From positions 29,946,001 through 30,010,000 of the forward strand of contig OZ231126.1 of the NCBI GenBank assembly GCA_965153355.1: 64,000 bases of DNA, in the 5' to 3' direction. The first letter of the stretch is position 1. Every line of letters starts with the position of its first letter. Shown one piece after another: positions 6,290 through 62,312 of the stretch. This stretch comes from Flaccisagitta enflata. Lineage: Eukaryota. Position numbers and translations under genes: made by a program. The notes beneath the pieces are model-generated. The model had not been told where the DNA came from. It made no database searches and worked only from the letters and a program-made list of their open reading frames with translations.

Positions 6290-7353
6290 CCGCCTGAGGA
6301 GCGAAATATCATTCTTTATGTCGTTCCGCCTGAAGGGTGAGATACCATTCTTTTTGACATTCCACCTGAGGGGTGAGATACCATTCTTTTTTTACACTCC
6401 ACCTGAGGGGTGAGATACCATTCTTTTTGTCATTCTGCCTGAGGGGTGAGATACCGTTTTTTTTGTCATTCCGCCTGAGGGGTGAGATACCATTCTTTTT
6501 GTCATTCTACCTGAGGGGTGAGATACCATTCTTTTTGTCATTCCGCCTGAGGGGTGAGATACCATTCTTTTTGTCATTCTGCCTGAGGGGTGAGATACCA
6601 TTCTTTTTGTCATTCTGCCTGAGGGGTGAGATACCATTCTTTTTGTCATTCTGCCTGAGGGGTGAGATACCATTCTTTTTGACATTCCACCTGAGGGGTG
6701 AGATACCATTCTTTTTGTCATTCTGCCTGAGGGGTGAGATACCATTCTTTTTGTCATTCCACCTGAGGGGTGAGATACCATTCTTTTTGTCATTCCACCT
6801 GAGGGGTGAGATACCATTCTTTTTGACATTCCACCTGAGGGGTGAGATACGATTCTTTTTGTCATTCTGCCTGAGGGGTGAGATACGATTCTTTTTGACA
6901 TTCCACCTGAAGGGTGAGATACCATTCTTTTTGACATTCCACCTGAGGGGTGAGATACCATTCTTTTTGTCATTCCGCCTGAGGGGTGAGATACCATTCT
7001 TTTTGTCATTCTGCCTGAGGAGTGAGATTCCATTCTTTTTGTCATTCTGCCTGAGGGGTGAGATACCATTCTTTTTGTCATTCCGCCTGAGAGGTGAGAT
7101 ACCATTCTTTTTGTCATTCTGCCTGAGGGGTGAGATACCATTCTTTTTGTCATTCTGCCTGAGGGGTGAAATACCATTCTTTTTGTCATTATGCCTGAGG
7201 GGTGAGATACCATTCTTTTTGTCATTCCACCTGAGGGGTGAGATGCCATTCTTTTTGTCATTCTGCCTGAGGGGTGAGATACCATTCTTTTTGTCATTCC
7301 ACCTGAGTGGTGACATACCATTCTTTTTGTCATTCTGCCTGAGGGGTGAGATA
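6290..7353. repeat. 36-bp minisatellite, left arm (~29 copies)
   Basis: Unit ccattctttttgtcattctgcctgaggggtgagata; 12-aa periodic ORFs on both strands; no spacers. Confidence 0.97.
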
Positions 7354-7970
7354 CAGTACCTTCCAAGCAAACCCGGCTAAAACTGGAGGATTAATTCTTG
7401 TTTCTTTAATTTCATTTCCCAAACTTCGTTTTTTGTACATAACTTAATTAAAAGATACTTAATTCCTTGAACATATGTGGCTGTCAAAAAAAATAACTCG
7501 TGAAATCAAAGTGCATGAAGACATCAATATTGAGTGTTCTAACCCAGACCATTGGATTTGGCAGAAAATTTTACCTGTCCTAGACTACAAGAACAGCTCA
7601 GTCAGATAATTACTTAGATTTTACAGCCATTTAAAGATTTTGAGGACAATTGTCTCAAAATGATTTAGGACAATTGTCCTTAAAAACTTTAATTGACCAT
7701 AAAATTTGAAATAATTGTCTGACTGAGCTGTTCTTGTAGTCTAGGATAGGTAAAATTTTCTGCCGAATCCAATAGTCTAGGTTAGAACACTCAATATTGA
7801 TGTCTTCATGCACTTTGATTTCTCGAGTTATTTTTTTTGACAGCCAAATATGTTCAAGGAATTAAGTATCTTTTAATTAAGTTTGATGCAAAAAATGAAG
7901 TTTGGGAAATGAAATTAAAGTAACAAAAATTAATCCTCCAGTTTTAACTGGGTTTGCTCGGAAGGTACTG
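7354..7970. mobile_element. Tc1/mariner-type foldback MITE (617 bp) inserted in the 36-bp array
   Basis: Ends cagtaccttcc...ggaaggtactg; TA duplicated (7352-7353, 7971-7972); neighbouring units show the empty site gagaTAccattc; the two ~295-bp halves are reverse complements. Confidence 0.95.
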
Positions 7971-8280
7971 TACCATTCTTTTTGTCATTCCATCTGAGGG
8001 GTGAGAAACCATTCTTTTTGTCATTCTGCCTGAGGGGTGAGATACCATTATTTTTGTCATTCCACCTGAGGGGTGAGATACCATTCTTTTTGTGATTCTG
8101 CCTGAGGGGTGAGATACCATTCTTTTTGTCATTCCACCTGAGGGGTGAGATACCATTCTTTTTGTGATTCTGCCTGAGGGGTGAGATACCATTATTTTTG
8201 TCATTCCACCTGAGGGGTGAGATACCATTCTTTTTGTGATTCTGCCTGAGGGGTGAGATACCATTCTTTTTGTCATTCCG
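7971..8280. repeat. 36-bp minisatellite, right arm (~8.5 copies)
   Basis: Same unit resumes in register after the MITE. Confidence 0.97.
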
Positions 8281-10729: not shown

Positions 10730-10855
10730 AAGTGAAAGATGAAAAAAAAAGAAAGAAATAGAGAAGGAGAGAGAAAAATGGAGAATGTAAGGAAATAACA
10801 CAAAAGAGTGAGAGAGAAAGAAAAAAAAAGAAATAATGAAAGAAGAAATTGACGA

Positions 10856-10903
<48 letters not shown>

Positions 10904-11035
10904 AAAAAAGAAAGAAAGAGAAAAAAAGAGAAAGAAAGAAAGAAAGAAAAGAAAAAAGTGGAGAAAGAAGTGGAGAAAGAGACGAAGACAAAAAAGACAG
11001 AAAGAAGGAAGGAAAGAAGAAAGGAAGGAAGGAAA

Positions 11036-11111
<76 letters not shown>

Positions 11112-11195
11112 GAAGAAAGAAAGAAAGAATAAGTAAGAAAGAGAGAAGGAAAAAAGAAGAAAGGAAGGAAGGAAAGAAGAAAGGAAGGAAGGAAA

Positions 11196-11232
<37 letters not shown>

Positions 11233-11253
11233 AAGAAAGAAAGAAAGAAAGAT

Positions 11254-11323
<70 letters not shown>

Positions 11324-11406
11324 GAAGAAAGAAAGAAAGAATAAGTAAGAAAGAGAGAAGGAAAAAAGGAAGCAGGAAAGAGGGAAGGAAAAAGAAAGAA
11401 AGATGG

Positions 11407-11457
<51 letters not shown>

Positions 11458-11505
11458 AAAAGAAAGAAGGAAAGAAGGAAAGAAGGAAAGAAAGAGGGAT
11501 ATATG

Positions 11506-11539
<34 letters not shown>

Positions 11540-11605
11540 AAGAAAGAAAGAAAGAAAGACAGAAAGAAAGACGAAAAAGAAACAAGAAAGAAAAAGAGAA
11601 AGAAA
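10730..11605. repeat. Long (GAAA)n-rich purine tract
   Basis: Direct reading; source of the KERK/SFFL ORFs. Confidence 0.95.
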
Positions 11606-14600
11606 GGTTTGACATACGTTTCCGTGAGGTTTGCCGCTGCTACTCGGATCACGAAAGAAAATATTTTGCCAGAATATTTCCGACAATTTTTTTCTCCTAA
11701 CTTGGTTAATGTTTGAATCACTAATTGAATCTTCGCAAAAGAAGACACAATTGGTTCCTACTTTCTTCTCAGAGACTGTATTCAAGTCGGGAATGAAAGA
11801 CCTCGAAAGAAAAGAAGACCCTTGCAGCCCATCTCCCCCTGTCATCCACTCCCCCTCCCCTCCCCATAGACTTTTGTATCGTCCTCACGACGTCCCTGCC
11901 ATATCACTTCATTTGTTTTGCCTCATCTAACGGAAACCAAAGGACGGAAGATTTGACGGACGGACGGTTGGCTGGACAGGAAGATGGATGGTCGGAAGGA
12001 CGGGTAGAGGAACAAATGGCCAGATAGATGGAAAGATGTTCATAGAGTCGATTAAAACGGGCAACAAAACCACAAATGGCAAAAAAGAAAAAAAAAACAC
12101 CAAAGAACCAGGAAGCTGAAAGGAAGCACCATTGATAATTGGAGACACGGGATGTGTCAAAGAAATGGTAAATGAAGAAAAAGAAGAAAGACCAAAAGCG
12201 TTAGATGGTCAGCAGTACCCGTGCCCTGCCTAGGTAGGTTGTGCGTGAAGTTGGAGGGGGAAGCAGGGCAGCGGCCGTGTAAAGGGAAATATCTCCTTCT
12301 TCTCCTTCTTCTTCTCCTTCTTCTTTTCCTTCTTCTTCTCCTCCTCCTCCATCCCCCCCTCAAATCCCAGTCTCGAGGTCCATTTCCCAGCCCCTTTTGG
12401 GGCCGCTGCCCAAAAAGGAAAATGAATGATCCCCTCTTCATAGAAAATTTAATCTGGAAGATTTCCTTCGGGTCCTCTTCCCGTCCCAGGTTGTTGATAC
12501 GCCCCCCCTCCTCTTTTCGATCCATTCTCTTCTCCTACCCTCCCCTCTCTTTCCCATCTGTTCTCTTCCCCCCTCCTGTCCTCATCTTCTACTCCTCACC
12601 ACCATAGGCACCATCGGCGCTCATCTCCTACCCCCCTTATTCTCATTAATTTTCACCCCCCTTCTCCAGGCTTCCAGCTATTTTCATCTCCCCTCCCCAC
12701 TTTTCTGTTCCACCTCCCCATCCCAGACCTTTTGGTACTTTAAAATGTCTTTTGATATATGGCGGCTTCATCGGAAACATTTTGAATTTCGATCTAATTT
12801 CCAAAAGTAGAAGAAGAGAAAAATTGAAGAGAAAAATTGAATAGAAAAAAAAAAGAAAAAAAAAAGAAATCAGTTTTCTCATTGCTGATATTTTTCTTTT
12901 CCTTTGAATAAGCGAGAGAGCCACAATTGCGTTTTTTTTTCTCATTTTTCTTTTTGTTGTGCTGTGTTTTTGCGCGCGCGCGATTTTGCTTGAGCTATTT
13001 CTTTGACGCGCGCACGATCGTTTTCCCTTTTAACGGCGCCTCTACATGCGCGCCTCTACATGCGCGCATCTTCATGCGCGATTTTACGTAAGCGCTTTTA
13101 CTTGCGCGCTATTACATGCGATCCACTACATGCGCGCCACTTCATAAACGCTTTTATATGCGCGCCACAACATGCGCGCTACAAGTGTGCGCCCTACACG
13201 TGTGCCTAAACATATGCGCTCTAAAGCTTTCATATGCGTGCTCTGCATGCGCTCCTTTACTGTTTTAGAGAAAAACATCATCAGCTTTGGAAGAGCATTG
13301 CCTCTAAACGGATTAAGCTACAGGTGCCTTAGTTCAAACAACTTTTTGAAATACGACCAATCTGATTGTTGTAGCTTTTTTCGTTGATGAGCAGTGCTTT
13401 TCGACAGTTGATCCATGTTTTCACTTTTCATGGATGAAAGATGATTTTTTAAGTCGCGTGCTACGCAACTCTACACCCCGCTATGTCGGTCGGTCGGTCA
13501 GTCCGTGGTCCCCTTTTTACTTTTTCGGCGTTTTTGAGCTTTTTCAGCGTTTTTGGTTTTTCAGCCTATTGCTCCTGCCCAAATGCTCCAGTCACCTTCT
13601 CCAGCACTGCTCCTGCCAAGCCGCACGCGACTAGGGTGCCCGTGTATCCGGCCTTGTTTTAATTAGTGTTGCAGATCTAATTAGAAAGCACTTCAAGCTC
13701 TCCACGATAATGCGGTTCGCGTCTGCAAGCTGTCTCATCGTACGCTGTTTGCTACGCAGCCATGCCCGCCTACGCGCGTCACCCCATCTGAGCTGACGCA
13801 TTCAAAGTTGGCGGTTTCAAGAAGAACGCGCCTATCGACGCGCCTGCCGTGCACGCTTGCAACCAATCTTATACCCCCAACGCATGCCCAACCCTCAAAT
13901 CTACCCCTTTCTCTTCTCGGGTGCCCCCCTCCAACCAACCTCACCCTCAGCCCACACGTACCCATCACCTCGTATCTCTTTCCCCCTTGCCCAACTCAAA
14001 CGTATCATACCACCGCGAAACGACTAAGACATCTCAAATCCCCTCCCTCTTCTCAGGTCCCCATTCTTTACCAACATCCCCCTCACCACCCATCCATTGG
14101 TCTCTCTTTCCTTCACCCCCTTCCCCCATCCCCAGCTCATAACTCAAACGTATCAAACCACCGCGAAAAGAGTGAAGGATCTCAAATGACCCTTGAAGGC
14201 AGAAAGAGTTGGACTTTGGCCGAGGTCCTTTTTGAAATGAGGTGCCAACTGTCATGTCAAAAACCAGAAGTCCTTCAAAAAAAATGAGTGGACACAAAAT
14301 GGCTGCTGGCAGTTGGGCTGTGTGCAGACTTATGAATACAAATTGGCTAATTGAACAGTAACCAGAAGTCCTTGAAACAAAAAAGAGTGGACACAAAATG
14401 AGTGCGGGCAGTTGAACTGTGTTCACACTTGTATATACTAATGGTAGCCCTCTATGACCTCCTTAGAAGTCACTATCCGTGTCTTTTGTTTTGTTTCAAA
14501 GCGGGTAATGAATTAGGGCTCGGGGTTGTTTCTGGAAAGGTAAATGGTGCATAGCGACTTTTGACCATAATACGATCTCATCGTCGTAAGGGATGAGGCC

Positions 14601-15789: not shown

Positions 15790-18100
15790 TGAGAGGGTTA
15801 ATGAGAATGAGGATGAGGATGAGGCTGGGAATGAGAACGAGGGTGATCGGTGAAAATGGGTTTTGGGATGAGGATGAAAGGGTTAATGAGAATGTGGATG
15901 AGGATGAGGCTGGGAATGCGAACGAGGGTGATCAATGAAAATGGGTTTTGGGATGAGGATGAAAAGTTAAATGAGAATGTGAATGAGGATGAGGCTGGGA
16001 ATGAAAACGAGGGTGATTGGTGAAAATGGGTTTTGGGGTGAGGATGAGGAGGTCAATGAGAATGTGAATGAGGATGAGGCTGGGAATGAGAACGAGGGTG
16101 AAAATGGGTTTTGGGATGAGGATGAGGAGGTCAATGAGAATGTGAATGAGGATGAGGCTGGGAATGAGAACGAGGGTGAAAATGGGTTTTCGGATGAGGG
16201 TGAGGAGGTCAATGAGAATGTGGATGAGGTTGAGGCTGGGAAAGGGAACGAGGGTGAAAATGGGTTTTTGGGGTGAGGATGAGGAGGTCAATGAGAATGT
16301 GGATGAGGATGAGGCTGGGAAAGGGAATGAGGGTGCAAATGGGTTTTGGGATGAGGATGAGGAGGTCAATGAGAATGTGAATGAGGATGAAGCTGGGAAT
16401 GAGAACGAGGGTGAAAATGGGTTTTGGGGTGAGGATGAGGAGGTCAATGAGAATGTGAATGAGGATGAGGCTGGGAAAGAGAACGAGGGAGAAAATGGGT
16501 TTTGGGGTGAGGATGAGGAGGTCAATGAGAATGTGAATGAGGATGAGGCTGGGAATGAGAACGAGGGTGAAAATGGGTTTTGGGGTGAGGATGAGGAGGT
16601 CAATGAGAATGTGAATGAGGATGAGGCTGGGAAGAGAACGAGGGTGAAAATGGGTTTTGGGGTGAGGATGAGGAGGTCAATGAGAATGTGAATGAGGATG
16701 AGGCTGGGAATGAGAACGAGGGTGAAAATGGGTTTTGGGGTGAGGATGAGGAGGTCAATGAGAATGTGAATGAGGATGAGGCTGGGAATAGAGAACGAGG
16801 TGAAAATGGGTTTTGGGGTGAGGATGAGGAGGTCAATGAGAATGTGAATGAGGATGAGGCTGGGAATGAGAACAAGGGTGAAAATGGGTTTTGGGATGAG
16901 GATGAGGAGGTCAATGAGAATGTGAGGATGAGGATGAGGATGAGAAAGAGAGATGATGAATGAAAAGGTTTTGGGGTGAGTGGATGAGGAGGTCAATGAG
17001 AATGTGAATGAGGATGAGGCTGGGAATGAGAACGAGGGTGAAAATGGGTTTTGGGGTGAGGATGAGGAGGTCAATGAGAATGTGAATGAGGATGAGGCTG
17101 GGAATGAGAACAAGGGTGATCGATGAAAATGGGTTTTGGGATGAGGATGAGGAGGTCAATGAGAATGTGAATGAGGATGAGGCTGGGAAAGAGAACGAGG
17201 GTGAAAATGGGTTTTGGGGTGAGGATGAGGAGGTCAATGAGAATGTGAATGAGGATGAGGCTGGGAATGAGGGTGAAAATGGGTTTTGGGGTGAGGATGA
17301 GGAGGTCAATGAGAATGTGAATGAGGATGAGGCTGGGAATGAGAACGAGGGTGAAAATGGGTTTTGGGGTGAGGATGAGGAGGTCAATGAGAATGTGAAT
17401 GAGGATGAGGCTGGGAATGAGGGTGAAAATGGGTTTTGGGGTGAGGATGAGGAGGTCAATGAGAAGGTGAATGAGGATGAGGCTGGGAATGAGAACAAGG
17501 GTGATCGATGAAAATGGGTTTTGGGATGAGGATGAGGAGGTCAATGAGAATGTGAATGAGGATGAGGCTGGGAAAGAGAACGAGGGTGAAAATGGGTTTT
17601 GGGGTGAGGATGAGGAGGTCAATGAGAATGTGAATGAGGATGAGGCTGGGAATGAGAACGAGGGTGAAAATGGGTTTTGGGGTGAGGATGAGGAGGTCAA
17701 TGAGAATGTGAATGAGGATGAGGCTGGGAATGAGAACAAGGGTGATCGATGAAAATGGGTTTTGGGATGAGGATGAGGAGGTCAATGAGAATGTGAATGA
17801 GGATGAGGCTGGGAAAGAGAACGAGGGTGAAAATGGGTTTTGGGGTGAGGATGAGGAGGTCAATGAGAATGTGAATGAGGATGAGGCTGGGAATGAGGGT
17901 GAAAATGGGGTGAGGATGAGGAGGTCAATGAGAATGTGAATGAGAATGAGGCTGGGAATGAGGGTGAAAATGGGTTTTGGGGTGAGGATGAGGAGGTCAA
18001 TGAGAATGTGAATGAGGATGAGGCTGGGAATGAGAACGAGGGTGAAAATGGGTTTTGGGGTGAGGATGAGGAGGACAATGAGAATGTGGATGAGGATGAG
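15790..18100. repeat. 78-bp minisatellite (~28 copies) grading into (GAGGAT)n-like simple repeat
   Basis: Unit gaggatgaggaggtcaatgagaatgtgaatgaggatgaggctgggaatgagaacgagggtgaaaatgggttttggggt; 26-aa periodic ORFs repeatedly broken by indels. Confidence 0.95.
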
Positions 18101-21100
18101 GAATATTGAGGGTAAGGATGAAAATCAAGATGAGGTCGAGAAAGGAAATGAAGATACAAAAAAAAAAAAAAAAACACAGCGGAAATGGCACTTCTTCGAC
18201 AACACACTTAAGTCTCAAAACAGCGAAGTACTGAAGAAGTCATATCAATGATAAAAAGACCCTTACCATGAACATCGCAAAATTAGTAGACAAGTATGTG
18301 TTTGCCGTAGGGAGGTATACAAGCTGGTGATATAAACCAGATCTGTATGGGATAGATGAAAATTCATATATACGGACGGACGAGCATAAAATTCACGAAC
18401 AGAACGGAATAACCTAACGATGAAGTGGCATCTGGAGAACTTTTGTTGTTACGCGGTTGTTTCTTGAACAAACCGAAAATTTGCCATGCAAACAATAAAA
18501 AATAGAAGAACAAACACTTAAACAGCGATAAACGTTGCTCAGGCCGATGTTTATTCTCTTAACAGTGTGACAATGTCATCGTGTAAGCTCTGCTCAAGAT
18601 AACACAGTAAAGATAAAGTTTAATAACTATTTATCTCATCCACCTTTCTGGGTATTGCCAATAATGATTAATGAGCCATGGGAAACGTGGCACCTTCAAT
18701 TCACAGCTATACCTTGTTATGGTACTGCGGTGGAAATAGACTGTTTAGAATAAAAAGTCGTCGAATTTTTCAACCTCCTGACTAACCAAATTACCGATGG
18801 ACGGATCGATGGGCAGTTGAAATCAAGGCATATATAGTACGATGCATAAAAAAATTTAAATTAACGATGGACGGATCGATGGACAGTTGAAAATAAGGCA
18901 AAAAGGGGATATATAGTGCGACGCATAAAAAAAGATACAAACTTTCTATTCAAGATCTCAATGCTCAAAACTGAATTATCAAACCTTATATCATGGTTAA
19001 TCAAAAAAGTTGGAAAAAATGAAGTAATTGCCGCTGATACTAAACATTTTTGTTGATTTGTGAAGATTTTATAATCAGTTGAAGATAAGGTGTTTAACAG
19101 TTTAAGATCGATGTAAGATCTTCAAATAACTCTTAAAGTCATCTTTGATTATATCTAATTTCTTTGAAGTGAGTTTAAACTCATGAAAATCCATGACATT
19201 TGGAAAGCCCTTCAAAATATCTTCAATTTGAGTTGTTTCTGGCATCTGTAGCTCAATTCGTTTAGAAGTTATGTTTGATTGAATATAAATAGTCATTTTC
19301 TAAAAACAGCAAAGAAAGGTCACAATTTTCATTGCTGTTTTTGATACTTTATCTTTGTTTTATTATAAAATTGGGGGCTTGCTGGCAATTTCTTTATTTT
19401 TGAAACATAAAAGAATTGATTTTAAGTCACCTGAAACAGAAACTTGTATCTTGTAACTTGTATCTTGTAACTTGTATCTTGTAACTTGTATCTTGTATCT
19501 TGTATCTTGTATCTTGTATCTTTTTTCATGCAGCGCACTGTAATGTGTGAAGTATTGTAAACAACCCAGACGTGATTTTAATTTGACTTTCCTCAGACGA
19601 CAATTCCATGATTCCCTTTCCTTCGTCAAATAAGAAGTAAGACCGTAGAAAATAAGGTACTTAGTTCTGTCAAGAATCGTCGTAGAATTGTCACACAACT
19701 GTCTCCCAGTGAGTCTTTTGAGAGTTTGTTGTCATGATCTTATTACCAATAAAGGCGGCTCTCGCCGTAGGAAAAAAGTCGTAAATGCGAGGTTTGGAAT
19801 TTTTTGAGATTGTGTTTTGTCTAGTTGATTGTCTCTTTTTCTTTTTCTCTCTCTCTAGCTCTCTCCCATTCTCATTTTCTCTTTCCCCTTCTCTCTCTCT
19901 CCCTGTCCCCTGCTTTCATGTAACACGGGGTTACAATATTGTTGCAGACAGGTGGACAGAGGCATCCAACCCCCATCCACACTCCAACCCCAACCCCCAC
20001 ACACAAGCATCTAGACCGCTTGTTTTTCCACTTTTCCACTTGGACGGACAGATGGACTAACAGACCGATGGATGGACTGACAGACAAAGCCTCTCATAGA
20101 GCCCAGAGTTGAAATGAGAGAGAGAATGTGTTGCCAGGATGCACAATCATTTATCTGGGACATTTCTAAGTTCATATAGACTTCAACTAACTTGATTCCT
20201 CTTTTAGGGAAAATTAAAAAAATGCAAAGAAATAAAAAAAGATTTAAAAAATCATAGCTCCAAAACTATTGATCGCAGAGAATTCTGCTTGGCGTCATCT
20301 GAAAGAGGAGAATTAGCTCTTTCTTAGCTATTAATTTCATGCGTAGTCCCATTCTGCCCCCAAAATGCAGCAACTTTCTCAAACGCTTCATAAAACAAAT
20401 GGAAATCCGTTTTTCTCTGCAGGACTCAAAAAGACCGAAGGGACTTTGTCTCTTCGACTTTTTTCCAAATAAATAGAGGTCCGTGCTTCCGTGTTTGAGC
20501 GACGTTTTGCACTTATTGACAAAATAGCGTAGATGTGGAGCAGGGGATCAACTAAGTGGGTGAATAGATGAGCAAAAACTTGAATGACGAGCGAACGTTT
20601 GAATAAAATGTAAACTCGTCTTAACAAAATGATTCATATCATCGCATAATTTCGTATAGAATGAAAAGAGAAATTTTGGGCGACGGATAATAAACAAGGC
20701 CGGAAACACGGCTACCCAAGTCGCTTGCGGGTGGGCAGGGACAGTGATGAAAAATTCTAATCGCGCCTCTTGGCAGGAGCAGCAGTGCAAAAACCGCCCG
20801 TAAACTCCAAGAAAACTAAGCGTTATCAACCGACGGACCGACCGACGGACAGAACGGGTTATAGATTCGCGTGCATGCGACTAGAAATAATCCATTCTGG
20901 TGCAATTTCAGCATTCTTGCAAGCGGATATGATTATGCGCCCATGAACATGGCGTTTGTTCAACTTTTTTTCTATTTGGCAAATGCAGAAGTCACACAGA
21001 AGGTCCGCCTGACTTGGGATGGTTTCAATTCAAAACAACCCATAATGGGGGGTAATTTTTTACTAATGAATTTTCGTTAATTTTCATTGAAAATAGATTT

Positions 21101-21560
21101 AATGCAAAGTTGCAATTTTGAGTTTTTTTTTACAAGATAAAAAAAAAAACAACTTAAATTTTCTTAAAGAACGTGAAGAGATCTCCTGAGGATAAAAAGA
21201 ATAAAAAAACATTTTTTTTTTTTGCATTTCCGTCATTATCAACAGTCAAGTGAAGCAGCTTTGCTACTCAACTTCAGGCTATAAGCACTCAACAAATGAA
21301 AAGGAAAAGGCGGAAGGAAGGAAAAAGACCGAAGAAGCAAAGATACGATTACAACTATAAACACTTGCCTCAGTTTCAAAACTCGTACTTTAATATTTGA
21401 AGGAAGCAAGTCCTTCTAATTCCTTCGTTGGTTTGATGGCCCGTCTGTCTGTTTATCTACACGCTAGAGTAATAGTAATAGTAAGGCGTCAGAACATTAG
21501 TTTTGTTTCTTTATCAAAAAGTAATGAGTCAATTGTATTGTCGGTTAATTAAACAGTGAC

Positions 21561-22474
21561 TGTTAGAAATGTATGTCCGTCCGTTTCTTAAGTATGTGTG
21601 CTTTTGTTTCTTTTGCGTGCTTTGGCTTTTTTTCTTTCTCTATTGTTCAATGCCAGCGTCTTTTGTTTCTCGCCACTTTTTATATTGAACGCTAGATGGG
21701 TAACCATATGGTTGCGCCTTGTATTTTGTGCCATTTGTTTTTATTACGTAGGCATACATACGTAACTCGTCTTTCGTATCATCCAATTTTTGGATTGATT
21801 GATTTTATTTATTTGCGGCATTGCTTCCTAAAGTGATTGATTGATTTTTCGTGATTGATTGAATGTGCCCTTGGAATTTACTAATTTCAATAATCTCTCA
21901 TCTTTTTATTGCAGATAAACTTATGAACGGACAATTAACGTTAATTTGACTTCGACAGACTGTGGGTTGAAACCAACGAAAGTGGGCCTAAAAGTAAGTT
22001 TTTTAGACGCGTCTTTGCTTTTATTAACGTTGTTTTTATCTTGTCTTCCGGTCTGTTATTTTTGTCTTTTGCATTTTGCATTTTTATCGCCGGATTTTAG
22101 TATGGTTTTTATCGCTTGCCCGATCAGCTTACTATGGGGATGATATGGATGAATCTAATGGGATAGGCCGGGGCAGGGGCAGGTATTATCAGGTGGCATG
22201 GGCTCTGAAGAAGATGAACATGTTGTCATGTGCTGTTTCTGTCCTTTATTGTGTCCTGTCTCGATTTCATGTTATCTTTTGCGTTTGCTGATCAAAATTA
22301 ACGCCCACTTTCCCTTTCATTTTTCCCCCTCTCTTCAGTTGTTGAAATTTTTATGGAATAAACGAGACGATCGCCTTCCTATTTTCCAATCGGCCAACTT
22401 TCTTTCACCACAAGTCGTCAGTCAGATAGACGCTCATAGACAGTGCCAGTTGAAACTCGTGGGCGTAATTTATA
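21561..22474 (+). repeat. 5' LTR (914 bp shared part; may extend to ...tttcaaca at 22482)
   Basis: Starts tgttagaaatg; matches 29141-30053 apart from a small cluster of differences near 22070-22100; AATAAA at 22357-22362. Confidence 0.95.
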
Positions 22475-22536
22475 TTTCAACAATTTAAAAACGACTCGAC
22501 TCGTTACATCTTGACCTCCGAAAACGAAATTGGACA

Positions 22537-23716
22537 ATGGCGGCCGCGCGTAACGACGACACCGTCTCGACTGCTTCAACGTCATCTCGTGTATCCCACT
22601 TCGGTTTGAATCAGTGTCCGAGGTCGGATCGTTTGCGCGCAATGAGGAACGACATCACTGCGGAAATGGAAGGATGCCGGCGCCTTTTCGACGCCGTCGC
22701 CACTTGCACCGAAGGGACGAACGACTTCGACGACGCCGCCTGTGAATCAGATGGCGCTCGACACGGCCTTCGGGATATGGTGTACGACTTTATATCATAC
22801 GCAAGGCAGATGGCGCGACTCGATGCCCGGCGACCCTCTTCGATTCGCGGCGTCCACTCTGCGTCGAACCGGCGCGAATGGGATTCCATGCGTTTCTTCG
22901 ATCGTGAAAACTATCCAGAGGGTTTTCCTTCCAACGCCGACATCGTCAACGCAGTGAATAACGACATCGGGAATCGTAAAAGACCCGTCAATGAATTCTC
23001 ATGGAACAGTCTCCCAACTGACACTCACGCCGCCCGTGACAATGTTAATGGCGCTCCAACTCCAAGGATGCGAACGTCGTCGCCAAACCCCGACGGATCC
23101 GAGTACTTGCCACTTCCGGCCCCTCGACATGGTGCGCAATCTCCAACTGGCGGTCAATTCTTAAATCTGCCGCCGATCCAAAGAGGAGATGCCGTCAATC
23201 AGTGGGTCTCAGATTTGGTCTCGGAAATCGAACCTGCGCGTGCGTCTCCGACGGAGCAAGCTGACGACATGCTTGCGGATCTCGACGACGCCGATGCTCT
23301 CGCAAGAGGTCGTGGGGTCATCAACGGATTGACGCCGCAGGAGAGGGCGAGGCGACGCTTTATCAACAGGAGTGCGGAGAGAGACAGATGGGGTAGACAG
23401 CTGGAGGAGGAAATGCGACAAGGCCGTCGGCTAATAGACGATATGCAGCAGCAACAACGGGAGGAGGAGCAGCGACAGCAACAGGAGCAACAGCAGCAGC
23501 ATCAATTGCAGATGCAGCAGCAACAACTCCAACAGCAACGTCAAATCCACCGACCACAGGAGCAGCAGCAAACGATGGCTCAACGGCAGCAGCAAGAGCT
23601 GTTGCAGCAGCAGCAGTTGCAGCAACTCCAACAATTTCGTCAACAAGATCAACATCAGATCCTGCAGCCGGCGCCACAACATGTGGCTCAACAACAGCAA
23701 CAAGACGATCAACAGC

Positions 23717-23747
<31 letters not shown>

Positions 23748-26276
23748 ACAACAAGAGCTGCAACAACGTCAACCGGCAACGCAGCCGCAGGAACAACAAC
23801 AACAGCGGAAAAATGATGCAGGAGAACGTATGCAACAGCAACTGCAGCAACAACAGCAACCTTCCGCCGCGATCCCAGCGGTGGTAGTGGATCCTCCAGC
23901 GTCAAATGATCATCCTGTCGAAAGCATGAATGTTAGTGAGGAGACAGAAGAAGCGAGACAGCAACGCCTTGCAGAACAACGACTGCGCATGATGGCTGAA
24001 GGTGAAGGTGGTGGTGCAGCAACAGCCCCAAAGGTGCCGATCGCGGTGCCATTGGGATTCCAACAGCGGAGCTCATCACAAGAAGACAAAGAGTTATACG
24101 ACAGAATGTGTAACTTTCGCCAGCAGCAGCAGCGAGATGAAGATAGAAGGGCAGGAGTGTTCAACAATGCGGCAGAGATGCAACGAAGACATTGGAATAG
24201 CCTGAACGACGGCGGCATTGGTGGAGCTTTAGAGCAGCGAGATGTGAAGCTTAGACAACTGTCTGAGCTGGACAAGCAGCAGCCGCAGCATCCGTCAAAG
24301 GACCGTCGATCTATTTTCAATTTGAACTTGCAGCAACGTCATGTGCAGCCAGTGGAAACATCCGTCAAGCAGCCGATGCAGCAGCAGCAACATGTGGAGC
24401 AGCAGCAGCAGCAAGGACAGCGACAGCATCAACTGCAGCAGCAGAATGAGCAGCAACAGCATCCTGACCAGCAGCAGCAGCTTCAACATCAACAGTGGCA
24501 GCAGCAACGGTTTCAACAACAGCAACAGCATCAGTATCAGCATCATCAAACTCCAGCAGCAACGATTCTCCCTACCGCACCGGAAGTGATCTTCGAGAAG
24601 CAGATTGGTTCTGCTAGAAGGGAGACTGGTCTTCCCCATCAAGAGGAAAAGGTCTTCAACACAGCCGGAAGCGGAGGTGATGCAACGGAGGCGATGCGCA
24701 GGAGGCAGAGGCAGGAGGCCGCTGACGCGAAGTTGGCACAGCAGCTGCAAGATAAGGAGAGAAGAAAAGTCGCTCCCAAGAAGACAACGAGTGGATTGCA
24801 GCCGAAGGCGCCAAAAGTAGCGCAAGCGCCTCTAGCAACGCCTCAAGCGGAAGTCATCCAGCAGAATCAACGTTTGCAGCAAGAAGTGGATAGTTTGAAG
24901 ATGCAGATTCAGCAGAGAGACTTTGACCTTGCCGCAGCGAGAGCAGAAGAAAAACAACGAAAGAGGAACAACAACAGCGACAGTACGTCCGCCAAGATTT
25001 TGATGCTCCCGATTCCATCAAGATGATCGTCAACAACAAATGAATCAGCAAGAAGAAGTTGGGTGGAGTATAAAAACCACCAAAAAGAGATCTCCGGTAA
25101 AGTCGGGGGTCAATACGCTTTGCCCAACAACCCCAGCGTATCATCAGGTGGAGCTTCATCAAGTAGCTCGTCAACCGGAAGTCCACGTTCAGATGCCCAA
25201 TAATCCGGCTCTGGATATGTTCTTGGAGAGGGCGGCGTACAACGATTATATGCGAGCAAGGGAGGTCGGCCTCAAAGCATTGGAGAGAGCAAGACCTGAG
25301 AAGCCTCTGCAGGAGCTTTCATCCACCGATTTCATGATGTGGAAGAGGAAGTTCAAAGATGCTGAAAAGTATGAAGGCTTGACGCAAATGGACATTTTAT
25401 CGGAATTGCCTAAGTGGTTTGCTGGTCCGGCAAAGGAGATCATTGAAACTGCGACGATTGATGCAACTGAAGCGACAGCAAGAGGAGAGATTGACGACGC
25501 CTTCGCAAAATGGACGTCGTCTTTATGGCAAGGCGCTGCAACATTGCGGCGCTGTTCAACGAAATCGTCGCGGAGGCAAGATCCAGTCGGCCGACCATGC
25601 AAGGCATTTCAATTTGTCTGCAAGGTTGCAAAAGGCAAAGAAGATTGCGAGGACCTGTGGAGAAGTGCAACACTGCTATCGTGACGAGCTGCTGCAGGAA
25701 ATCCTCAATAAGAGGGTCCCTCATCTTGCAGATAAATTCTGGGAAAAGCAACATGAAGCAGCCCAAAATGGACAATTATTTTCATTCGACAACTTGGTCA
25801 ACATGATCGAGACATGGGCGGTGATTCAGCGCAACAAAGGCGCAAGCTGCAAAACAGCATCAGTGGCAGCAGTCGCAACTACAGAAAAAGAAGCGCCATC
25901 ATCATATGGGGATGCTTTGACCAATGGCAAGCAAAAGATGCAGTCGACGGACCGCTGCAACGTCTGCAGTGGAATGCATCAAACAGAAGAGTGTCATCAG
26001 CTGTTAGAGTTGGAAGTGGACGCGAGAGTTCAGAAGATCATGTCTCGTCGTCTGTGCTTCCACTGCCTCGCGCCAGGACACAACGCCAAAGGATGTGCGA
26101 ACAGACCAACTTGCCAGATCTGCAAGAAGCGGCATGCCACGATTCTCCACGGGCGCACCTACAAGAAAGAAGAAATCAACAAGTCAGAGGATGCGGCTGC
26201 AGCAGCACCAACAGCTCCGTCGACGGCGGAGACAGCCAATCCTACGGAAGTGATCTCTTCTAACGTCACGGCATGA
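22537..26276 (+). CDS. gag: BEL/Pao Gag, glutamine-rich, ~1250 aa if four apparent 1-nt deletions are repaired
   Basis: ORFs 22537-25026, 25040-25684, 25510-25806 and 25419-26276 can be joined by adding one base at ~24961, ~25009, ~25508 and ~25571; C-terminus has CNVCSGMHQTEEC, CFHCLAPGHNAKGC and CQICKKRHATILH knuckles typical of BEL Gag. Confidence 0.85.
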
Positions 26277-28061
26277 CTGGCGGCGACGGCAACGTCGCGG
26301 TCCGTCTCTTCATTCGACGACGTTGTCCGTCCGATTGTTCCAGTGACTATCATAAACAATTCTTCGGGTGCGCAGAGGACGATTTACGCTATGATCGACT
26401 CAGGCGCTGATCGCGACGTGATCAGTACCAATGTCATTCGCAGTCTTCTGATTCCAACAAAAACAGTGCAAATGACGGTGATTACCGTGGGAAGTCATGT
26501 TGTTGAGGATCGTTTCATCGCATCATTCACTATGCAATCGGTCGACGAGGAATATGTCGTCGACGTCAACGACGCATTGGTGGGTGATTTGTTAACGAGT
26601 GAACGCGACATTCCTCCTTTTCTCCGCGACCTATCTGACCAACCTCACGTCGAAAGCATAAAATTTCCAGAAGCTGAAGGCGGTGTGATGATGATCATCG
26701 GAGCGGCGCATGCGGATGCCGCCGTCGCTCAAGAAATCCGCCGAGGGCCTTCAGGATCTTTGACTTGCTTCAGATGTCTATTCGGTTGGACTGTATGTGG
26801 AAAAACGGGCAAGAGAGGACGAGATATTGCATCGATCAACGCTATCGCGACGGATGACCGTGTCCTCAACGACAACATCGATCGCATCCTCGACAATCGC
26901 GTCCTCAACAGCAACATTGACCGCATCTTCTACCATGACTTTGCATCATCAATCGTCTCGCAAGAGGAGATGGGTGATTCCCTTGAAAATGTCAGAGCGT
27001 GCAAAATGTTAGAGGAAAAGACATATTTTTGCCCAATTGCAGCAGAGGATCTTCTTCCTAAACCGGAAGTGGCGCAAGACGTCTTGGAGGAGGCGCGCAA
27101 ACAGCTCGTCAAGTCAATGCAGCGGCAACATTGTTCCGACGTTTTCGAACAATTGGAGTTGGGAAAAGCCTTTAAACCAAAAGGCCGTCGTGACTTCGTC
27201 ATCAAGGGTGAGGATGTGCTAAAGTTGAACCCTTTCGTCGATGACGACGGCGTCCTTCGCGTCGGCAGCCGATTGGAGAATGCCGACATCACACGTGACG
27301 CTAAATTTCCCTTCATCCTTCCGCCAAAAGACGAGAATGTGAAATCATTAATTCGCCATTATCATCATAATGATTTTCACGTGGGTGCAGAGCATACATT
27401 GTGCCAATTACGCCAATTTGTGTGGATTACAAAAGGTCTTCAGGCTGTCAAGAGCGTCGTCAACACGTGCTTCAGATGCCAGAAGAACTTGAAAAAGAAC
27501 GCGAATCAGCGAATGGCCAAGCTTCCGTCAAAGCGTCATCTTGCTTCCATCTCTATTGGCGCCATCCTCCACGTCGATGCCTTCAACACTGCTGTCGTCG
27601 AAGGTGAAGGAATTCTCAATCGCCGTCCTCTAACAGCGCTCAGCGGTGATCCAAATGATTCTGAGGCCCTCACACCGAATCATATCCTCAATCCATCAAC
27701 ATCCGGTCACGCCCCTCTGGATCTGGCGCAACAAGGCGTCAACTCTGACGCCGACTCAGCGAAGATTCAATGGAGGCGTGCGCAATCGCGGGTGGATGTG
27801 TTTTGGAAATCGTGGAGGGTCGAATATTTGGCGCTTCTTCACGCGCAAAGCAAATGGTCGAGATCCGAGAGAGACTTTGCGGTCGATAACATGGTCGTCG
27901 TCATGGACGAAACGCTGCCTCGTCACAATTGGAGTTTAGGACGCGTCATGGGTGTCGAAGGTTCATCAGCTCATGTCCGGAGAGCTTATCCTCGACGCCA
28001 AGATGAAAAGATCGTGACGAAAGACCGCACAAGGCGTCTGCGGCTGGAATTGGATTCATAA
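26277..28061 (+). CDS. pol: Truncated BEL Pol: aspartic protease + integrase zinc finger + C-terminal domain; no RT, RNase H or DDE core
   Basis: VVRPIVPVTI...IYAMIDSGADRDVI (protease); LNPFVDDDGVLRVGSRL..K.PFILP; H..DFHVG...WI...CFRC (HHCC); ILNRRPL..LTPNHIL; QWRRAQ..FWKSWRVEYL..W.LGRV (DUF5641-like). Same frame as gag, after a TGA. Confidence 0.9.
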   Translation: MAATATSRSVSSFDDVVRPIVPVTIINNSSGAQRTIYAMIDSGADRDVISTNVIRSLLIPTKTVQMTVITVGSHVVEDRFIASFTMQSVDEEYVVDVNDALVGDLLTSERDIPPFLRDLSDQPHVESIKFPEAEGGVMMIIGAAHADAAVAQEIRRGPSGSLTCFRCLFGWTVCGKTGKRGRDIASINAIATDDRVLNDNIDRILDNRVLNSNIDRIFYHDFASSIVSQEEMGDSLENVRACKMLEEKTYFCPIAAEDLLPKPEVAQDVLEEARKQLVKSMQRQHCSDVFEQLELGKAFKPKGRRDFVIKGEDVLKLNPFVDDDGVLRVGSRLENADITRDAKFPFILPPKDENVKSLIRHYHHNDFHVGAEHTLCQLRQFVWITKGLQAVKSVVNTCFRCQKNLKKNANQRMAKLPSKRHLASISIGAILHVDAFNTAVVEGEGILNRRPLTALSGDPNDSEALTPNHILNPSTSGHAPLDLAQQGVNSDADSAKIQWRRAQSRVDVFWKSWRVEYLALLHAQSKWSRSERDFAVDNMVVVMDETLPRHNWSLGRVMGVEGSSAHVRRAYPRRQDEKIVTKDRTRRLRLELDS

Positions 28062-29125
28062 AAAACGCTAAGTTTTGAGAGAGAGAGAGAAAAGGCGCAT
28101 GGGCCTGTCCATTAGTAACTATAGATATGAGTGATTGAAACTCTGACTTGTTATATTTACAAAGAGTTGTTATTATTCATATTTGGTTCTGATTATCCAT
28201 GCTTTCATCTTTCCTCTTGTCAATTATGTTATCCATTTCCACTCACACATCAAAACACTGATTCATTCGCTCTGTCTATATGTACATATTATTGTGCCAA
28301 AATCCGTTCTTACCATTATCAGTTCGCGATAACGAACATTTCAAGCTTCCGCTGACAACGTTATTCCATCTACGAAGTCAGTCTACATCTTGAAGTCGCT
28401 CGTCGGAGTCAAGATGTCACGTCAGCATCCGGCTCCTCCTGCGCCTTTCGATGCGGTCGCCGTTGACGACATCATTTATCGCCTTTCGCCCACGGATTGA
28501 CGAGGTGTTGGAGCTTCCGGAATGACCCGCTCGTCTCTGTAATGGAGAAGGCGCAGGTGATGTGGTCGTTCCATGATGCTTACTAATTTTTTTTTTTTTT
28601 TGCTTTTACTGATTCGTTTTTATATATAGTTAGTAATTTATTTAATTTTATCTTGTTTTGTTTGGTTCCTTGGAACATGTAAATTTTGTTGTGTTTGTTT
28701 TAGACATGGTCTTTTTAGTCATTATTACGAATACTTTCGTATGACATGTTTTAGTAGTATGCCCCTACTCATTATTTTCCACTCTTAAGTCAAATCCCAG
28801 GCTTGAGTGCTCCAAGGCCCGTTCCTTTTCCCCCTCTTCCTTAACTTTTACAGAACAGGTGCCTCAACTCGTCGCCGCCTGTCTCCATCCGCGTCATCGT
28901 GATCGAAAATTTGCTGGTGGTGGATCCTTTCCGGACGGGAATCATCTCTCGTGCAGACGTCGATCTGTTGATAGTTAGGGTGGGGATGTAAGAGGCGGTG
29001 GACGGGGGGGAGGGGCGGGGGCTGTGTCTATGTAAATTTTTTTTTAAGGAAGGTAGTATCGGTTTTTTAGTAGGGTTTCCCCGACTGGAAACTAGGTGTC
29101 GGATTTTTGAAATTCGTGAAATTCC

Positions 29126-29140
29126 AAAAATGGGGCAGAA
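29126..29140 (+). promoter_or_regulatory. Polypurine tract
   Basis: aaaaatggggcagaa immediately before the TG of the 3' LTR. Confidence 0.8.
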
Positions 29141-30053
29141 TGTTAGAAATGTATGTCCGTCCGTTTCTTAAGTATGTGTGCTTTTGTTTCTTTTGCGTGC
29201 TTTGGCTTTTTTTCTTTCTCTATTGTTCAATGCCAGCGTCTTTTGTTTCTCGCCACTTTTTATATTGAACGCTAGATGGGTAACCATATGGTTGCGCCTT
29301 GTATTTTGTGCCATTTGTTTTTATTACGTAGGCATACATACGTAACTCGTCTTTCGTATCATCCAATTTTTGGATTGATTGATTTTATTTATTTGCGGCA
29401 TTGCTTCCTAAAGTGATTGATTGATTTTTCGTGATTGATTGAATGTGCCCTTGGAATTTACTAATTTCAATAATCTCTCATCTTTTTATTGCAGATAAAC
29501 TTATGAACGGACAATTAACGTTAATTTGACTTCGACAGACTGTGGGTTGAAACCAACGAAAGTGGGCCTAAAAGTAAGTTTTTAGACGCGTCTTTGCTTT
29601 TATTAACGTTGTTTTTATCTTGTCTTCCGGTCTGTTATTTTTGTCTTTTGCCCTTTTGCATTTTTATCGCCGGATTTAGTATGGTTTTTATCGCTTGCCC
29701 GATCAGCTTACTATGGGGATGATATGGATGAATCTAATGGGATAGGCCGGGGCAGGGGCAGGTATTATCAGGTGGCATGGGCTCTGAAGAAGATGAACAT
29801 GTTGTCATGTGCTGTTTCTGTCCTTTATTGTGTCCTGTCTCGATTTCATGTTATCTTTTGCGTTTGCTGATCAAAATTAACGCCCACTTTCCCTTTCATT
29901 TTTCCCCCTCTCTTCAGTTGTTGAAATTTTTATGGAATAAACGAGACGATCGCCTTCCTATTTTCCAATCGGCCAACTTTCTTTCACCACAAGTCGTCAG
30001 TCAGATAGACGCTCATAGACAGTGCCAGTTGAAACTCGTGGGCGTAATTTATA
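29141..30053 (+). repeat. 3' LTR (913 bp)
   Basis: Direct repeat of 21561-22474, followed by TSD gtgac. Confidence 0.95.
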
Positions 30054-31044
30054 GTGACGTTTCAGACCAGTAGTTGTTTTATCAGTTAGTAATGCGTCGG
30101 ACCATTAGTTTGTTTATCAAGTAATAATGCATCAGACCATGAGCTGGTAAATCAAATAATAATAACACGCTGTTGTACAAGTTGAACGGACTAATTGGAT
30201 TGATTTTCATATCACGTGTTTACTTGTTTACATATCATTACAAAATCGTAAATATGCTCATTTTTTTAATTGAAGAGGGAAATTCGTCTTTTGTAATTTG
30301 TTCCTTGATATCAACTTCACGTGACTCTTTTACTCGCTGTGTCAGGCGGTCCGTCAGTTTATCCTTTAGGCCCGTCTATCTTTTTCTTTTTTTAACATAA
30401 TAGCGTTAAGGGTGTTTTATTTTTAGGGGATATAGGTAGTTTATTCTTTGCCACAGTGCACCTACCCTTTTTTAAAGTTCTTTTTCAGGGGTGTATATAA
30501 TTGAGTCGCCTTTGATTTTTTTTCCCTGTTTTGCGTCGTGTCGCATTTTAAAATCTATGATTATCTTCCCCAGAGTGAAACAGTGAAACAGTGTAGTTAA
30601 GGTTTCAATAGAGTTGAATTGTCTTTTACTAATCATTATTTATGATTTGGTACTGCCAAAAGATATATCTTCTTTTTTGCCCGGCCACCCGCACGCGATC
30701 GAGGCATCCAAAAATCCGTCCATGCTGTTTAAACACATTTCATTTTCTGAGGAGACTCTTTCTATTCCAAAGATGGCGTACGTGTACTTTGTGTTGATTG
30801 AATAGGCCCAGCATTTACGAGCCTTCCTCCTTTTAACATCCTTCCATCATCCTTTTATAGCTCGTCGAGGAATCATTCTCTTTACAATTCCCCCCCCCCC
30901 TTCCCCGCCCTCTTTTATTTCAAATCCCAAAAATAGTCTTCCATAATGCACAGCAAATTATTCTGCTATACTACATAAACACATCATCTCCTTAGTCCTT
31001 CCATTCCAAAACTATTCTGCATTGCCTTCAATGGGCACGCATCT

Positions 31045-32684: not shown

Positions 32685-34054
32685 GCAACGATGGTATCTA
32701 AGATGCATATTTTCACAGTTCACACTTTCCGACTCATGACTAATGGATCAACAGACTGACTAACGGACTGACCCACAAATAGGTGGACCAACAGATGGCC
32801 CAATAGTAGTCATGAAATTTTCAGCTAAAAACGCATAGCACCAGTGAAAGAAACAGATAAGTGAATGAGGGGCTGACTTTACTTGCTGTGTGCAGGAGGG
32901 CAATACTCAGTTCCATGTGAAACGTCAAGCGCTTTTGAGTTTTAAATAAGTACTATTATCATAAACTCCTCAACAATCAAGAAACAGCAGCTTGTTATCC
33001 TCTGCAGCTGCCCCTAACGCTGCTGTCGCAATAATTCCCGATGTTCATATGTTTTTTTGTGTTTTCTGCCTTGTTCCTATAGAGGGCTGCTAAGACAGAG
33101 AGCAAGAGGAAAGCTAAAGAACACTTTTTGCTAGTAATTTTTTTGTTGATGATAACTAACACAAAAAAGACCCAGGCACTTGGCGATTTTCGATATAACA
33201 AGGTCAAATGGACGTCTAAACCAAAAGTTAAGACAGCTTGTGACACCTTGAGGTGGCCTGTAACCTGGAATTCTTGCTATATTGGATGCCAACCAATAGA
33301 CAGACAAAGCCTCTTATAAAGTCACCAGTACGCGCTTAAAAAGGGATGAGCGACAGTCTACAGATTGTTATCACAAAGTGAAACGGCGTTGACTCCGAGA
33401 CGTTATGGGATCGTGACCCAGATTCCACCTCCCGCGTCTCACATTCAACGCCACGGGACCGACATTTAGGACCACGTGACCCGAATTCCACGCCATATGA
33501 CGCAGACTCCATGTTTTTTGGCGCAGATTTGAAGCCATGGGACCGAGATTTAGTTCTACCTGACCCGAATTCCACGTCATACTATGACGCAGATGCAATA
33601 TACTATATGCTATGGTAAGTATTCTATGCACGTCAATGTGAAAAGAAGACATTCACTGCCTTAACAAATGTTCACAGTTTTTAGCGTGGCACAGTCTTGG
33701 GCCTTTTAAGGCTTAACGGTGAAGACACCATGATTTTAAACATAATTAAGGTCTAGCAGGGAACCAATATCGTCAATCTCATAACCACTGTTTATTAAAG
33801 TAAAATGAGGTTTATGTGTGAAACGTTGCGCCAATTGTCAAGTACGTCGTTCAAGCGCCTATCTTATTCACTGCCTCTACCTGACTGCTTCTCTGCGCTA
33901 CATTTGAGCGAGTTATTCAGTTGCAAATGGAATCGAGACGTTGAACTGTAACAGTGACTTAATTTCTTTTACTGCGCAATTTTGGCAAAACGTTTGTGAT
34001 TACATGTACAATTCAAATTTAAGCTTCGTATTCTGATGAGGCCGGCAAGGCGTT

Positions 34055-41141: not shown

Positions 41142-41604
41142 TGTTTCCGTTTGAGTTCATGGGCACACCATCACGAATTTTTGGAGCATAAAATCTCCTT
41201 ACTACAACGCCTTCTGGTAGCTCGAAGCTATCACTTTTCAAAGTATCCAAGTCTTTCTTTCGTATGCACACTTTGAAGCTCTTAAAACGATTATGAGGCA
41301 TATTCAGTTCCTCGGCCTCAACCACAGGCACTCCTTGGTCTTCAATGTTGAACTTAACGACATCAACACTCGTACTAGTATCAAAATATCCGAGGTACAG
41401 ATTTGTGGTTAAATCTGCCCCTCGCCACAATCTCAGTCCATCCGAAACTTTTTTCCCAATGACTATATCGGGTGATTTTCGATTTGGCCGAGAAGTCGAT
41501 TGACCATTTCCAGCTGAACGCGCAGTGATACCATTGTTTCTGCCGTTACGACCACTGTTGTTGTTATGAATGCGACCATCGCGGTTGAGACTGCCGACGC
41601 CGCG

Positions 41605-41683
<79 letters not shown>

Positions 41684-41689
41684 ATACGC

Positions 41690-41729
<40 letters not shown>

Positions 41730-41767
41730 GACGCTGTTGTTGTTGTTGACGCTGTTGTTGTTGACCC

Positions 41768-41810
<43 letters not shown>

Positions 41811-41815
41811 GACGC

Positions 41816-41862
<47 letters not shown>

Positions 41863-62099: not shown

Positions 62100-62227
62100 C
62101 AACAACAACCACCACCACCACCATCACTACCACCACCACCACCACCACCACCACCACCACCACCACCACCACCACCACCACCACCACCACCACCACCACC
62201 ATAACAACCACAATAACAACCACAACC

Positions 62228-62312
<85 letters not shown>

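Follow-up and report, generated by a model that had tools for sequence, protein, structure and literature searches.

The 64,000-nt stretch of the Flaccisagitta enflata genome analysed here (assembly GCA_965153355.1, contig OZ231126.1, positions 29,946,001 to 30,010,000 of the forward strand; hereafter the window, numbered from its first letter) carries an 8.5-kb long terminal repeat (LTR) retrotransposon of BEL/Pao type at 21561-30053, in which a lone in-frame TGA stands between gag and pol. A first-pass annotation had proposed this junction as a site of stop-codon readthrough. The element has an LTR pair with a target-site duplication, and the hallmark Pol domains of BEL/Pao are provided jointly by the window and by its closest relative, P0004, a protein of 1312 aa from an autonomous element that is 85-94% identical across three aligned blocks (P numbers denote relatives, which are proteins from public records). 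Pfam detected DUF5641 (5.8e-16), Integrase_H2C2 and weak aspartyl-protease matches in the window's pol, and the BEL/Pao signature in P0004, consisting of Peptidase_A17 (5e-29), rve and DUF5641 with a weak, sub-threshold RVT_1 match. The ESM Atlas confirmed a protease of BEL/Pao type (DUF1758 clusters). The features of the element are collected in Table 1.

Table 1. Features of the BEL/Pao-type element and of its gag/pol junction, in order of position in the window.
Feature	Position	Strand	Remarks
Target-site duplication GTGAC, 5' copy	21556-21560	+	Identified by eye; the 5 bases abut the outer LTR end
5' LTR	21561-22474	+	Begins TGTTAG, finishes TTTATA; ends refined by eye
gag, N-terminal glutamine-rich part	22537-25026	+	Frame 1; separate open reading frame (ORF) in the window copy
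gag, middle part	25040-25578	+	Broken by frame changes near 25026-25040, 25510 and 25578
gag, C-terminal part	25575-26273	+	Two Cys/His zinc knuckles and a linker ending ...SSNVTA
gag stop codon TGA	26274-26276	+	In frame with pol; context GCA-TGA-CTG-G
Small hairpin, extended	26279-26302	+	3 bp, G.G mismatch, 6 bp, GCAA loop; -15.9 kcal/mol; 2-6 nt from the stop
6-bp hairpin core	26283-26298	+	GCGACG 26283-26288, loop GCAA 26289-26292, CGTCGC 26293-26298; 6 nt past the stop
Alternative long hairpin	26285-26331	+	16 bp, two 1-nt bulges, 13-nt loop; 8-nt spacer from the stop
RPIV codons, first strand of protease	26328-26339	+	Upstream of any ATG
First pol-frame ATG	26391-26393	+	Residue 39; followed by Ile and the catalytic DSGA (26397-26408); two codons before the catalytic Asp
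pol remnant ORF, 594 aa	26277-28061	+	Protease, integrase zinc-binding domain, DUF5641; ends TAA
Purine-rich tract, polypurine-tract-like	29126-29140	+	Adjoins the 3' LTR; by eye, function inferred from position alone
3' LTR	29141-30053	+	From LTR alignment; ends by eye
Target-site duplication GTGAC, 3' copy	30054-30058	+	Abuts the outer end of the 3' LTR

Read directly, the sequence has CTG immediately 3' of the gag stop (26277-26279), and translation in the gag frame past the TGA yields LAATATSRSVSSFDDVVRPIVPVTI..., which stays open until the TAA at 28059-28061. ATG is absent from this frame over 26277-26390. The letters of the first-pass annotation for the end of gag, the adjoining CTG and the GCAA-tetraloop hairpin were all as claimed, and its statement that pol runs on in the gag frame without an ATG was likewise confirmed. 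Programmed -1 or +1 frameshifting was ruled out for the window copy: pol is in frame 0, and because both other frames are closed just upstream of the TGA, by stops at 26251 and 26261, a shift in either direction cannot reach it. In the window copy, then, one in-frame stop divides the two coding regions and frameshifting offers no way round it; for the relatives, the frame was inferred from the abutting ends of their ORFs.

Related proteins were collected with junction searches in which the stop was read as X. An exhaustive search gave 8738 relatives at E<=0.001, and the best 150 of these together with 7 earlier matches were classified, giving 157 proteins that sorted into 47 gag-only, 47 pol-only and 63 spanning (fused) relatives. 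Identity to the query was 21-32% for the spanning proteins and 31-96% for the split ones. Five gag proteins, each from a different 90%-identity cluster, finish at the very residue that ends ...SSNVTA* in the window: P0161, P0162 and P0166 end in ...SPNATA, P0012 in ...SPNVTA and P0006 in ...TPPVEA. On the other side, the pol fragments P0163-P0167 and P0017 start with MSS[F/S]D[D/G]VVRPIV, ten codons past the stop position. With the stop numbered 199 in the query, no pol-only protein of the 47 extends further towards the N-terminus than position 202; 29 of them have their first residue within 205-227, and 15 have theirs at the conserved Met shortly ahead of DSG. In gag-only proteins the C-terminus lies a median of 51 residues past the final zinc-knuckle His motif. 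Two close-range searches gave 18 proteins (6 and 12), not one of which spanned the stop, and a search for longer, fused close relatives gave one match, P0010, which belongs to a distant fused element (26%). A pattern search for related loci in genome contigs matched 50 stretches, none of which was confirmed. Sister copies with a sense codon at this site, which the first-pass annotation had named as the outcome that would undo its proposal, did not materialise at the protein level: related gags end here and related pols begin just after. Judged from these proteins, the position of the stop is conserved across diverged relatives and is not private to this copy.

The last residue of gag is biased, being L (17), A (10), I (9) or V (3) in 39/47 relatives, often within ...NPTI, ...NPVL or ...ESVL. 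A readthrough context on the 5' side, in the form of a codon that ends in A, or a site for protease cleavage may underlie this bias.

Phylogenetic trees, built as quick searches without bootstraps and left unrooted, placed the split relatives together. The protease tree held 106 rows: the window itself, every one of the 63 spanning proteins and 42 of 47 pol-only ones, the five left out being under 120 residues long or failing to span the core. One branch (SH-aLRT, the Shimodaira-Hasegawa-like approximate likelihood-ratio test, 98) had the 43 split rows all to one side, corresponding to one state change, and the same split was recovered, with a support of 99, without the columns upstream of RPIV and with a site-mixture model. 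All fused relatives lie outside the clade that holds the window copy, here as on the gag tree. The gag tree of 107 rows (the window, 45/47 gag-only and 61/63 spanning proteins) grouped 45 of 46 split rows in one set with a support of 99, and one split row was found elsewhere, outside the main split set. These comparisons clearly point to the split gag/pol organisation as an old, inherited trait of a diverse lineage, with the fused elements as outgroups.

The stretch between the stop and the first Met has the marks of coding sequence. When the window was aligned with 19 pol-only relatives, R18 and P19 were invariant in the 20 sequences and I20 and V21 were present in at least 90% of rows, as part of the motif x-R-S-x-x-x-D-D-x-I-R-P-I-V, in which an acidic motif precedes RPIV and which lies entirely upstream of Met residue 39. 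The alignment profile matched the protease of Rous sarcoma virus (E 0.013), with RPIV on RPLV (residues 10-13) and AllDsGad on the active site. An AlphaFold model (mean pLDDT, predicted local distance difference test, 81.8) showed confident strands at residues 20-26 and 33-40, both of which precede or cross the first Met, with RPIV bordering the first of them and residues 1-13 disordered. Foldseek assigned a retropepsin fold to this model, with the protease of human T-cell leukaemia virus type 1 (HTLV-1) at a probability of 1.00 and a template modelling (TM) score of 0.57. The conserved first protease strand that the first-pass annotation had placed upstream of any Met was therefore recovered by each of these approaches: the conservation of RPIV, the Rous sarcoma virus alignment, the AlphaFold strands and Foldseek. 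Since the residues ahead of the Met are conserved and predicted to form the first strands of a retropepsin fold, they must, on the alignment and the model, be translated; a protease begun at the first AUG would be without its first strand and half of its second. The positions of the strands place the stop within ~15 residues of the protease N-terminus, and we take the amber codon of murine leukaemia virus (MuLV) to lie at a comparable place.

Retroelements need far more Gag than Pol; the known ways to achieve this are frameshifting, readthrough and the later regulation of a fused ORF. For the family represented here we consider programmed readthrough of the UGA the best explanation and a probable one, although it is unproven. 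It is favoured because the stop is conserved, the segment after it appears to be translated, and pol is in frame 0 with the other frames closed. With gag and pol in one frame and a single stop at the gag/protease boundary, most ribosomes in working members would halt at the UGA and release Gag, and a minority would insert an amino acid there and go on to make a Gag-Pol fusion, by which protease, reverse transcriptase (RT) and integrase would enter particles; MuLV uses this strategy. As likely signals we name the weak UGA, its 3' neighbour C (UGA-CUG-G) and a stable RNA hairpin that begins 2-8 nt further on. The first-pass proposal that Pol is made by programmed readthrough thus held with respect to the conserved in-frame stop, the split clade and the coding sequence after the stop; readthrough itself is the most likely account.

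The context of the stop in the window, GCA-UGA-CUG-G, combines UGA with a C at +4 and an A before the stop. UGA has the lowest termination efficiency of the stop codons, C at +4 promotes near-cognate decoding and readthrough, and UGA CUA G is the strongest known readthrough motif (PMC12233894). Type II signals are described as UGA-CGG or UGA-CUA with a stem of at least 11 bp placed 7-9 nt downstream, and human SEPN1 as having a 16-bp stem after a 6-nt spacer (PMC3159437). Two hairpins were found downstream of the TGA. The 16-nt core of the small one folded better than 200/200 dinucleotide shuffles (z -4.16), and its extended form, in a 29-nt version, was matched by 2/200 (z -2.67). The long one pairs 26285-26300 with 26314-26331; 26277-26335 folds at -23.5 kcal/mol (z -1.36), and when stretches of 59-84 nt are folded this hairpin gives the lowest energy. 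Among 6632 windows of 30 nt scanned over the 6.6-kb internal region, only two other loci folded better, and the junction was among the three best-folding loci with 30-nt and 60-nt windows alike. As the region is CG-rich, part of the stability of the hairpins is a matter of composition. The folds, for which pseudoknots were not searched, showed hairpins only, and Rfam gave no family match at the junction. The long hairpin has textbook spacing; the small one is less likely by chance but stands very near the stop. RNA folding, which the first-pass annotation had suggested as a check, therefore upheld the GCAA core, which beat all shuffles, but also brought out the longer, competing hairpin that uses the same 5' bases. 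Either hairpin may be the stimulator, or neither may be.

Several observations weigh against programmed readthrough as set out above. The window's UGA-CUG-G departs from UGA-CUA-G at +6, and the small hairpin, at 2-6 nt from the stop, is nearer than the 7-9 nt typical of known stimulators. The long hairpin was equalled by 17/200 shuffles. The two hairpins share 5' bases and are mutually exclusive. In the window copy, gag is frameshifted upstream, so that few or no ribosomes would reach the TGA. Every pol-only protein begins with M, which makes genuine start codons shortly past the stop possible. Finally, for the Tca2 retrotransposon, which has the same layout together with a predicted pseudoknot, a reporter assay gave no readthrough directed by the junction, and a minor internal promoter was found (PMC2194720).

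Readthrough may instead depend on the stop context alone (xxA-UGA-C...), with both hairpins incidental to a CG-rich linker and to the DDVVRP codons, a variant to which we give a substantial chance, somewhat short of even. Along with the shuffles that equalled the long hairpin, the 72-nt fold was equalled by 11/200, and the 3' arm of the long hairpin falls in the DDVVRP codons, whose conserved amino acids constrain it regardless. The minimum-energy fold also flips between the two competing structures with the length that is folded, and the biased C-termini of gag hint at a constraint 5' of the stop. Set against this variant are the small hairpin core, which no shuffle matched, and the place of the junction among the best-folding loci of the element, exactly where stimulators act. 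Also, context alone gave 0.2-2% readthrough in alphavirus constructs, which a stem raised 3- to 14-fold (PMC3159437).

The serious rival to readthrough, which we nevertheless regard as unlikely, is that the stop is conserved but Pol is made in another way: by termination and reinitiation, from a non-AUG start after the stop (CTG 26277, or start codons in the relatives), from an internal promoter or subgenomic RNA, or by splicing. The Tca2 results speak for this, as do the called starts of 29/47 pol-only relatives, which fall within ~25 codons of the stop position, and the CTG that directly follows the stop in the window, CTG being the best non-AUG start codon. The M starts, however, are probably choices of the gene caller among ATG, GTG and TTG. 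They are scattered over positions 202-227 with no single fixed codon, and the near-identical P0005 and P0167 were given different starts, which again suggests gene-caller choice rather than conserved AUGs; moreover, the window offers no ATG before residue 39. A free Pol would also be without its usual Gag tether for packaging. As for Tca2, the study still concluded that Pol comes from gag-pol RNA (PMC2194720).

It is very improbable that a nonsense mutation confined to this copy, or a miscalled base, produced the TGA in a family that is otherwise fused, like most BEL/Pao elements. The window copy is indeed decayed: its gag has three frame changes and a linker gap that is in frame, its pol has two deletions, and its LTRs show 5 differences. 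In addition, 63/157 relatives are fused. Against this, the five gag proteins that end at the TGA residue come from different clusters and no close relative spans the site; with the fused relatives all outside the clade of the window copy, this explanation is already contradicted. Recoding of UGA as selenocysteine, or as a sense codon in the host, has the in-frame UGA itself as its sole point and a negligible probability, as the gags of relatives are called as ending here, no other in-frame TGA was seen within the 845-aa and 594-aa ORFs, and a search of 21000-30500 at E<=1 for a selenocysteine insertion sequence (SECIS) or another Rfam family found none, apart from two weak, unrelated matches in the CAG-rich region.

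The copy in the window is a young but defective, non-autonomous deletion derivative. Its two LTRs are 99.5% identical over 918 aligned columns, with 5 differences. In the first-pass annotation the gag of this copy had been taken as intact, but tblastn revealed frame changes that break it near 25026-25040, 25510 and 25578: P0162 and P0007 match the middle part of gag in frame 2 (25040-25510), then frame 1 (25510-25581) and then frame 3 (from 25575). Given these three frame changes relative to the intact P0162 and P0007, the gag ORF that ends at the TGA comprises only the last 297 codons. Compared with P0004, the window's pol is without residues ~224-839 (RT and RNase H) and 1006-1136 (the integrase core), the joints of the two deletions lying near 27036-27044 and 27528-27536. 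Because the window copy is defective, the stop works, if at all, in working members of the family; here the signal was inherited from the family, does not work in this copy and is probably no longer used.

Both pol deletions are in frame, so that a 594-aa ORF remains open in a deletion derivative. In relatives, gag is one long ORF (P0007, 874 aa; P0009, 902 aa) with a glutamine-rich N-terminal half, and tblastn with these two single-ORF gags matched the window at 22552-23103. The CAG-repeat-rich, glutamine-rich N-terminal half is very long in the window (22537-25026), making gag longer here than the ~870-900 aa of relatives; its first ~120 residues are kept in P0007 (48% identity), and P0009 matches ~190 residues at 26%. 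Pfam gave no significant family for the gag pieces or the glutamine-rich ORF. In the lysine/glutamate-rich gag linker after the zinc knuckles, 21 residues that are present in P0161, P0162 and P0012 are absent from the window near 26175-26190, and this gap is in frame.

With regard to the remainder of the element, the LTR terminates in TA, as opposed to the usual CA. The 22475-22536 segment after the 5' LTR (TTTCAACAATTT...) contains no obvious tRNA primer-binding site, and 28062-29140, between the pol stop and the 3' LTR, holds no ORF of note. No second BEL/Pao copy was found in the window by tblastn with seven relatives, and blastn of the element against the window returned only the LTR pair and CAG-type simple repeats. 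A scan of the window for tRNA genes found none. Elsewhere in the window there is a purine-rich 78-bp minisatellite at 16019-18101 (26.8 copies, 90% matches), which accounts for the GC skew of 0.84 in 16001-18000, and a 36-bp tandem repeat in two arrays ~600 bp apart, at 6285-7354 (29.7 copies) and 7971-8280 (8.6 copies). Long simple repeats were also observed, namely (AGAA)n with ~200 copies at 10811-11606, (GTT)n at 41604-41861 and (AAC)n at 62102-62313, the last two accounting for the weak hits that blastn gave against CAG-rich gag sequence. At 33414-33581 an 84-nt unit occurs twice side by side in direct orientation, at 74% identity.

To our knowledge, readthrough is documented for gamma- and epsilonretroviruses, whereas for LTR retrotransposons it is no more than a suspicion, in a few cases. 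In the literature searched, BEL/Pao elements were nowhere described as using readthrough or as having an in-frame gag stop, but BEL elements with such a stop may already be on record in Repbase or in the survey by Gao et al. 2003 (RNA 9:1422), which is said to be the main one on how LTR retrotransposons recode gag/pol. In a BEL/Pao survey, the terms stop codon, frameshift and readthrough do not occur (PMC3118150), and no BEL/Pao readthrough or in-frame gag stop was found in the Sinbad paper (PMC554778) or in a 2016 recoding review (PMC5009743); a 2026 review of readthrough in animal viruses does not mention retrotransposons (PMC13517186). We regard the present case as a well-supported comparative lead on a putative mechanism. 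A clade-wide, conserved in-frame stop, if true, would represent a third, independent origin of the readthrough strategy, and its many natural variants would help to show what stop contexts, and what structures 3' of them, favour readthrough in invertebrate or other metazoan hosts. In annotating this clade, one would have to join gag-only with pol-only ORFs into one readthrough unit instead of calling them broken copies. More tentatively, and as a possibility that we hold to be rather doubtful, an old and diverse BEL/Pao (Belpaoviridae) clade may have dropped the fused gag-pol ORF and evolved a Gag:Gag-Pol ratio set by UGA readthrough independently of gammaretroviruses, at the gag/protease boundary and with a signal like that of alphaviruses or plant viruses (A-UGA-C and a stem ~8 nt downstream), in which case the L, I, A or V ends of 39/47 gags would represent a conserved 5' context.

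Compared with known systems, the element shares with typical fused BEL/Pao elements the domain order and the hallmark domains (zinc-knuckle gag, DSG protease, Peptidase_A17 and DUF5641, as in P0004). Whereas those have one fused gag-pol ORF, in the lineage of the window a stop marks the gag/protease boundary, and gag is glutamine-rich and unusually long. Tca2 of Candida albicans (Ty1/copia) is likewise an LTR retrotransposon with gag-UGA-pol in frame and a predicted 3' structure (PMC2194720), but it belongs to another superfamily and another host kingdom, and by this analogy a shared layout would not prove readthrough. Gag and pol of MuLV also occupy one frame with a single stop at the gag/protease boundary and an RNA structure a few nt downstream, and the 8-nt spacer given for MuLV (PMC3159437, PMC4178896) equals that of the window's long hairpin. 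MuLV, a member of the Retroviridae, differs in using UAG-G with a compact pseudoknot; in the window, a BEL/Pao element, this gammaretrovirus-type signal was not found, the stop being UGA followed by C with a simple hairpin. Type II signals (alphavirus nsP3/nsP4, tobraviruses, furoviruses and coltivirus) have an A before the stop, UGA-C and a stem of at least 12 bp located 7-9 nt downstream (PMC3159437), to which the 16-bp stem at 8 nt in the window compares well. They differ in having CUA or CGG after the stop, stems spanning ~100-150 nt and demonstrated covariation, as opposed to CUG, a 13-nt loop and a structure examined by thermodynamics alone in the window. By analogy, the arrangement would work like the gag-stop-pol of gammaretroviruses, and the likely signal would be nearer to the type that combines UGA-C with a stem.

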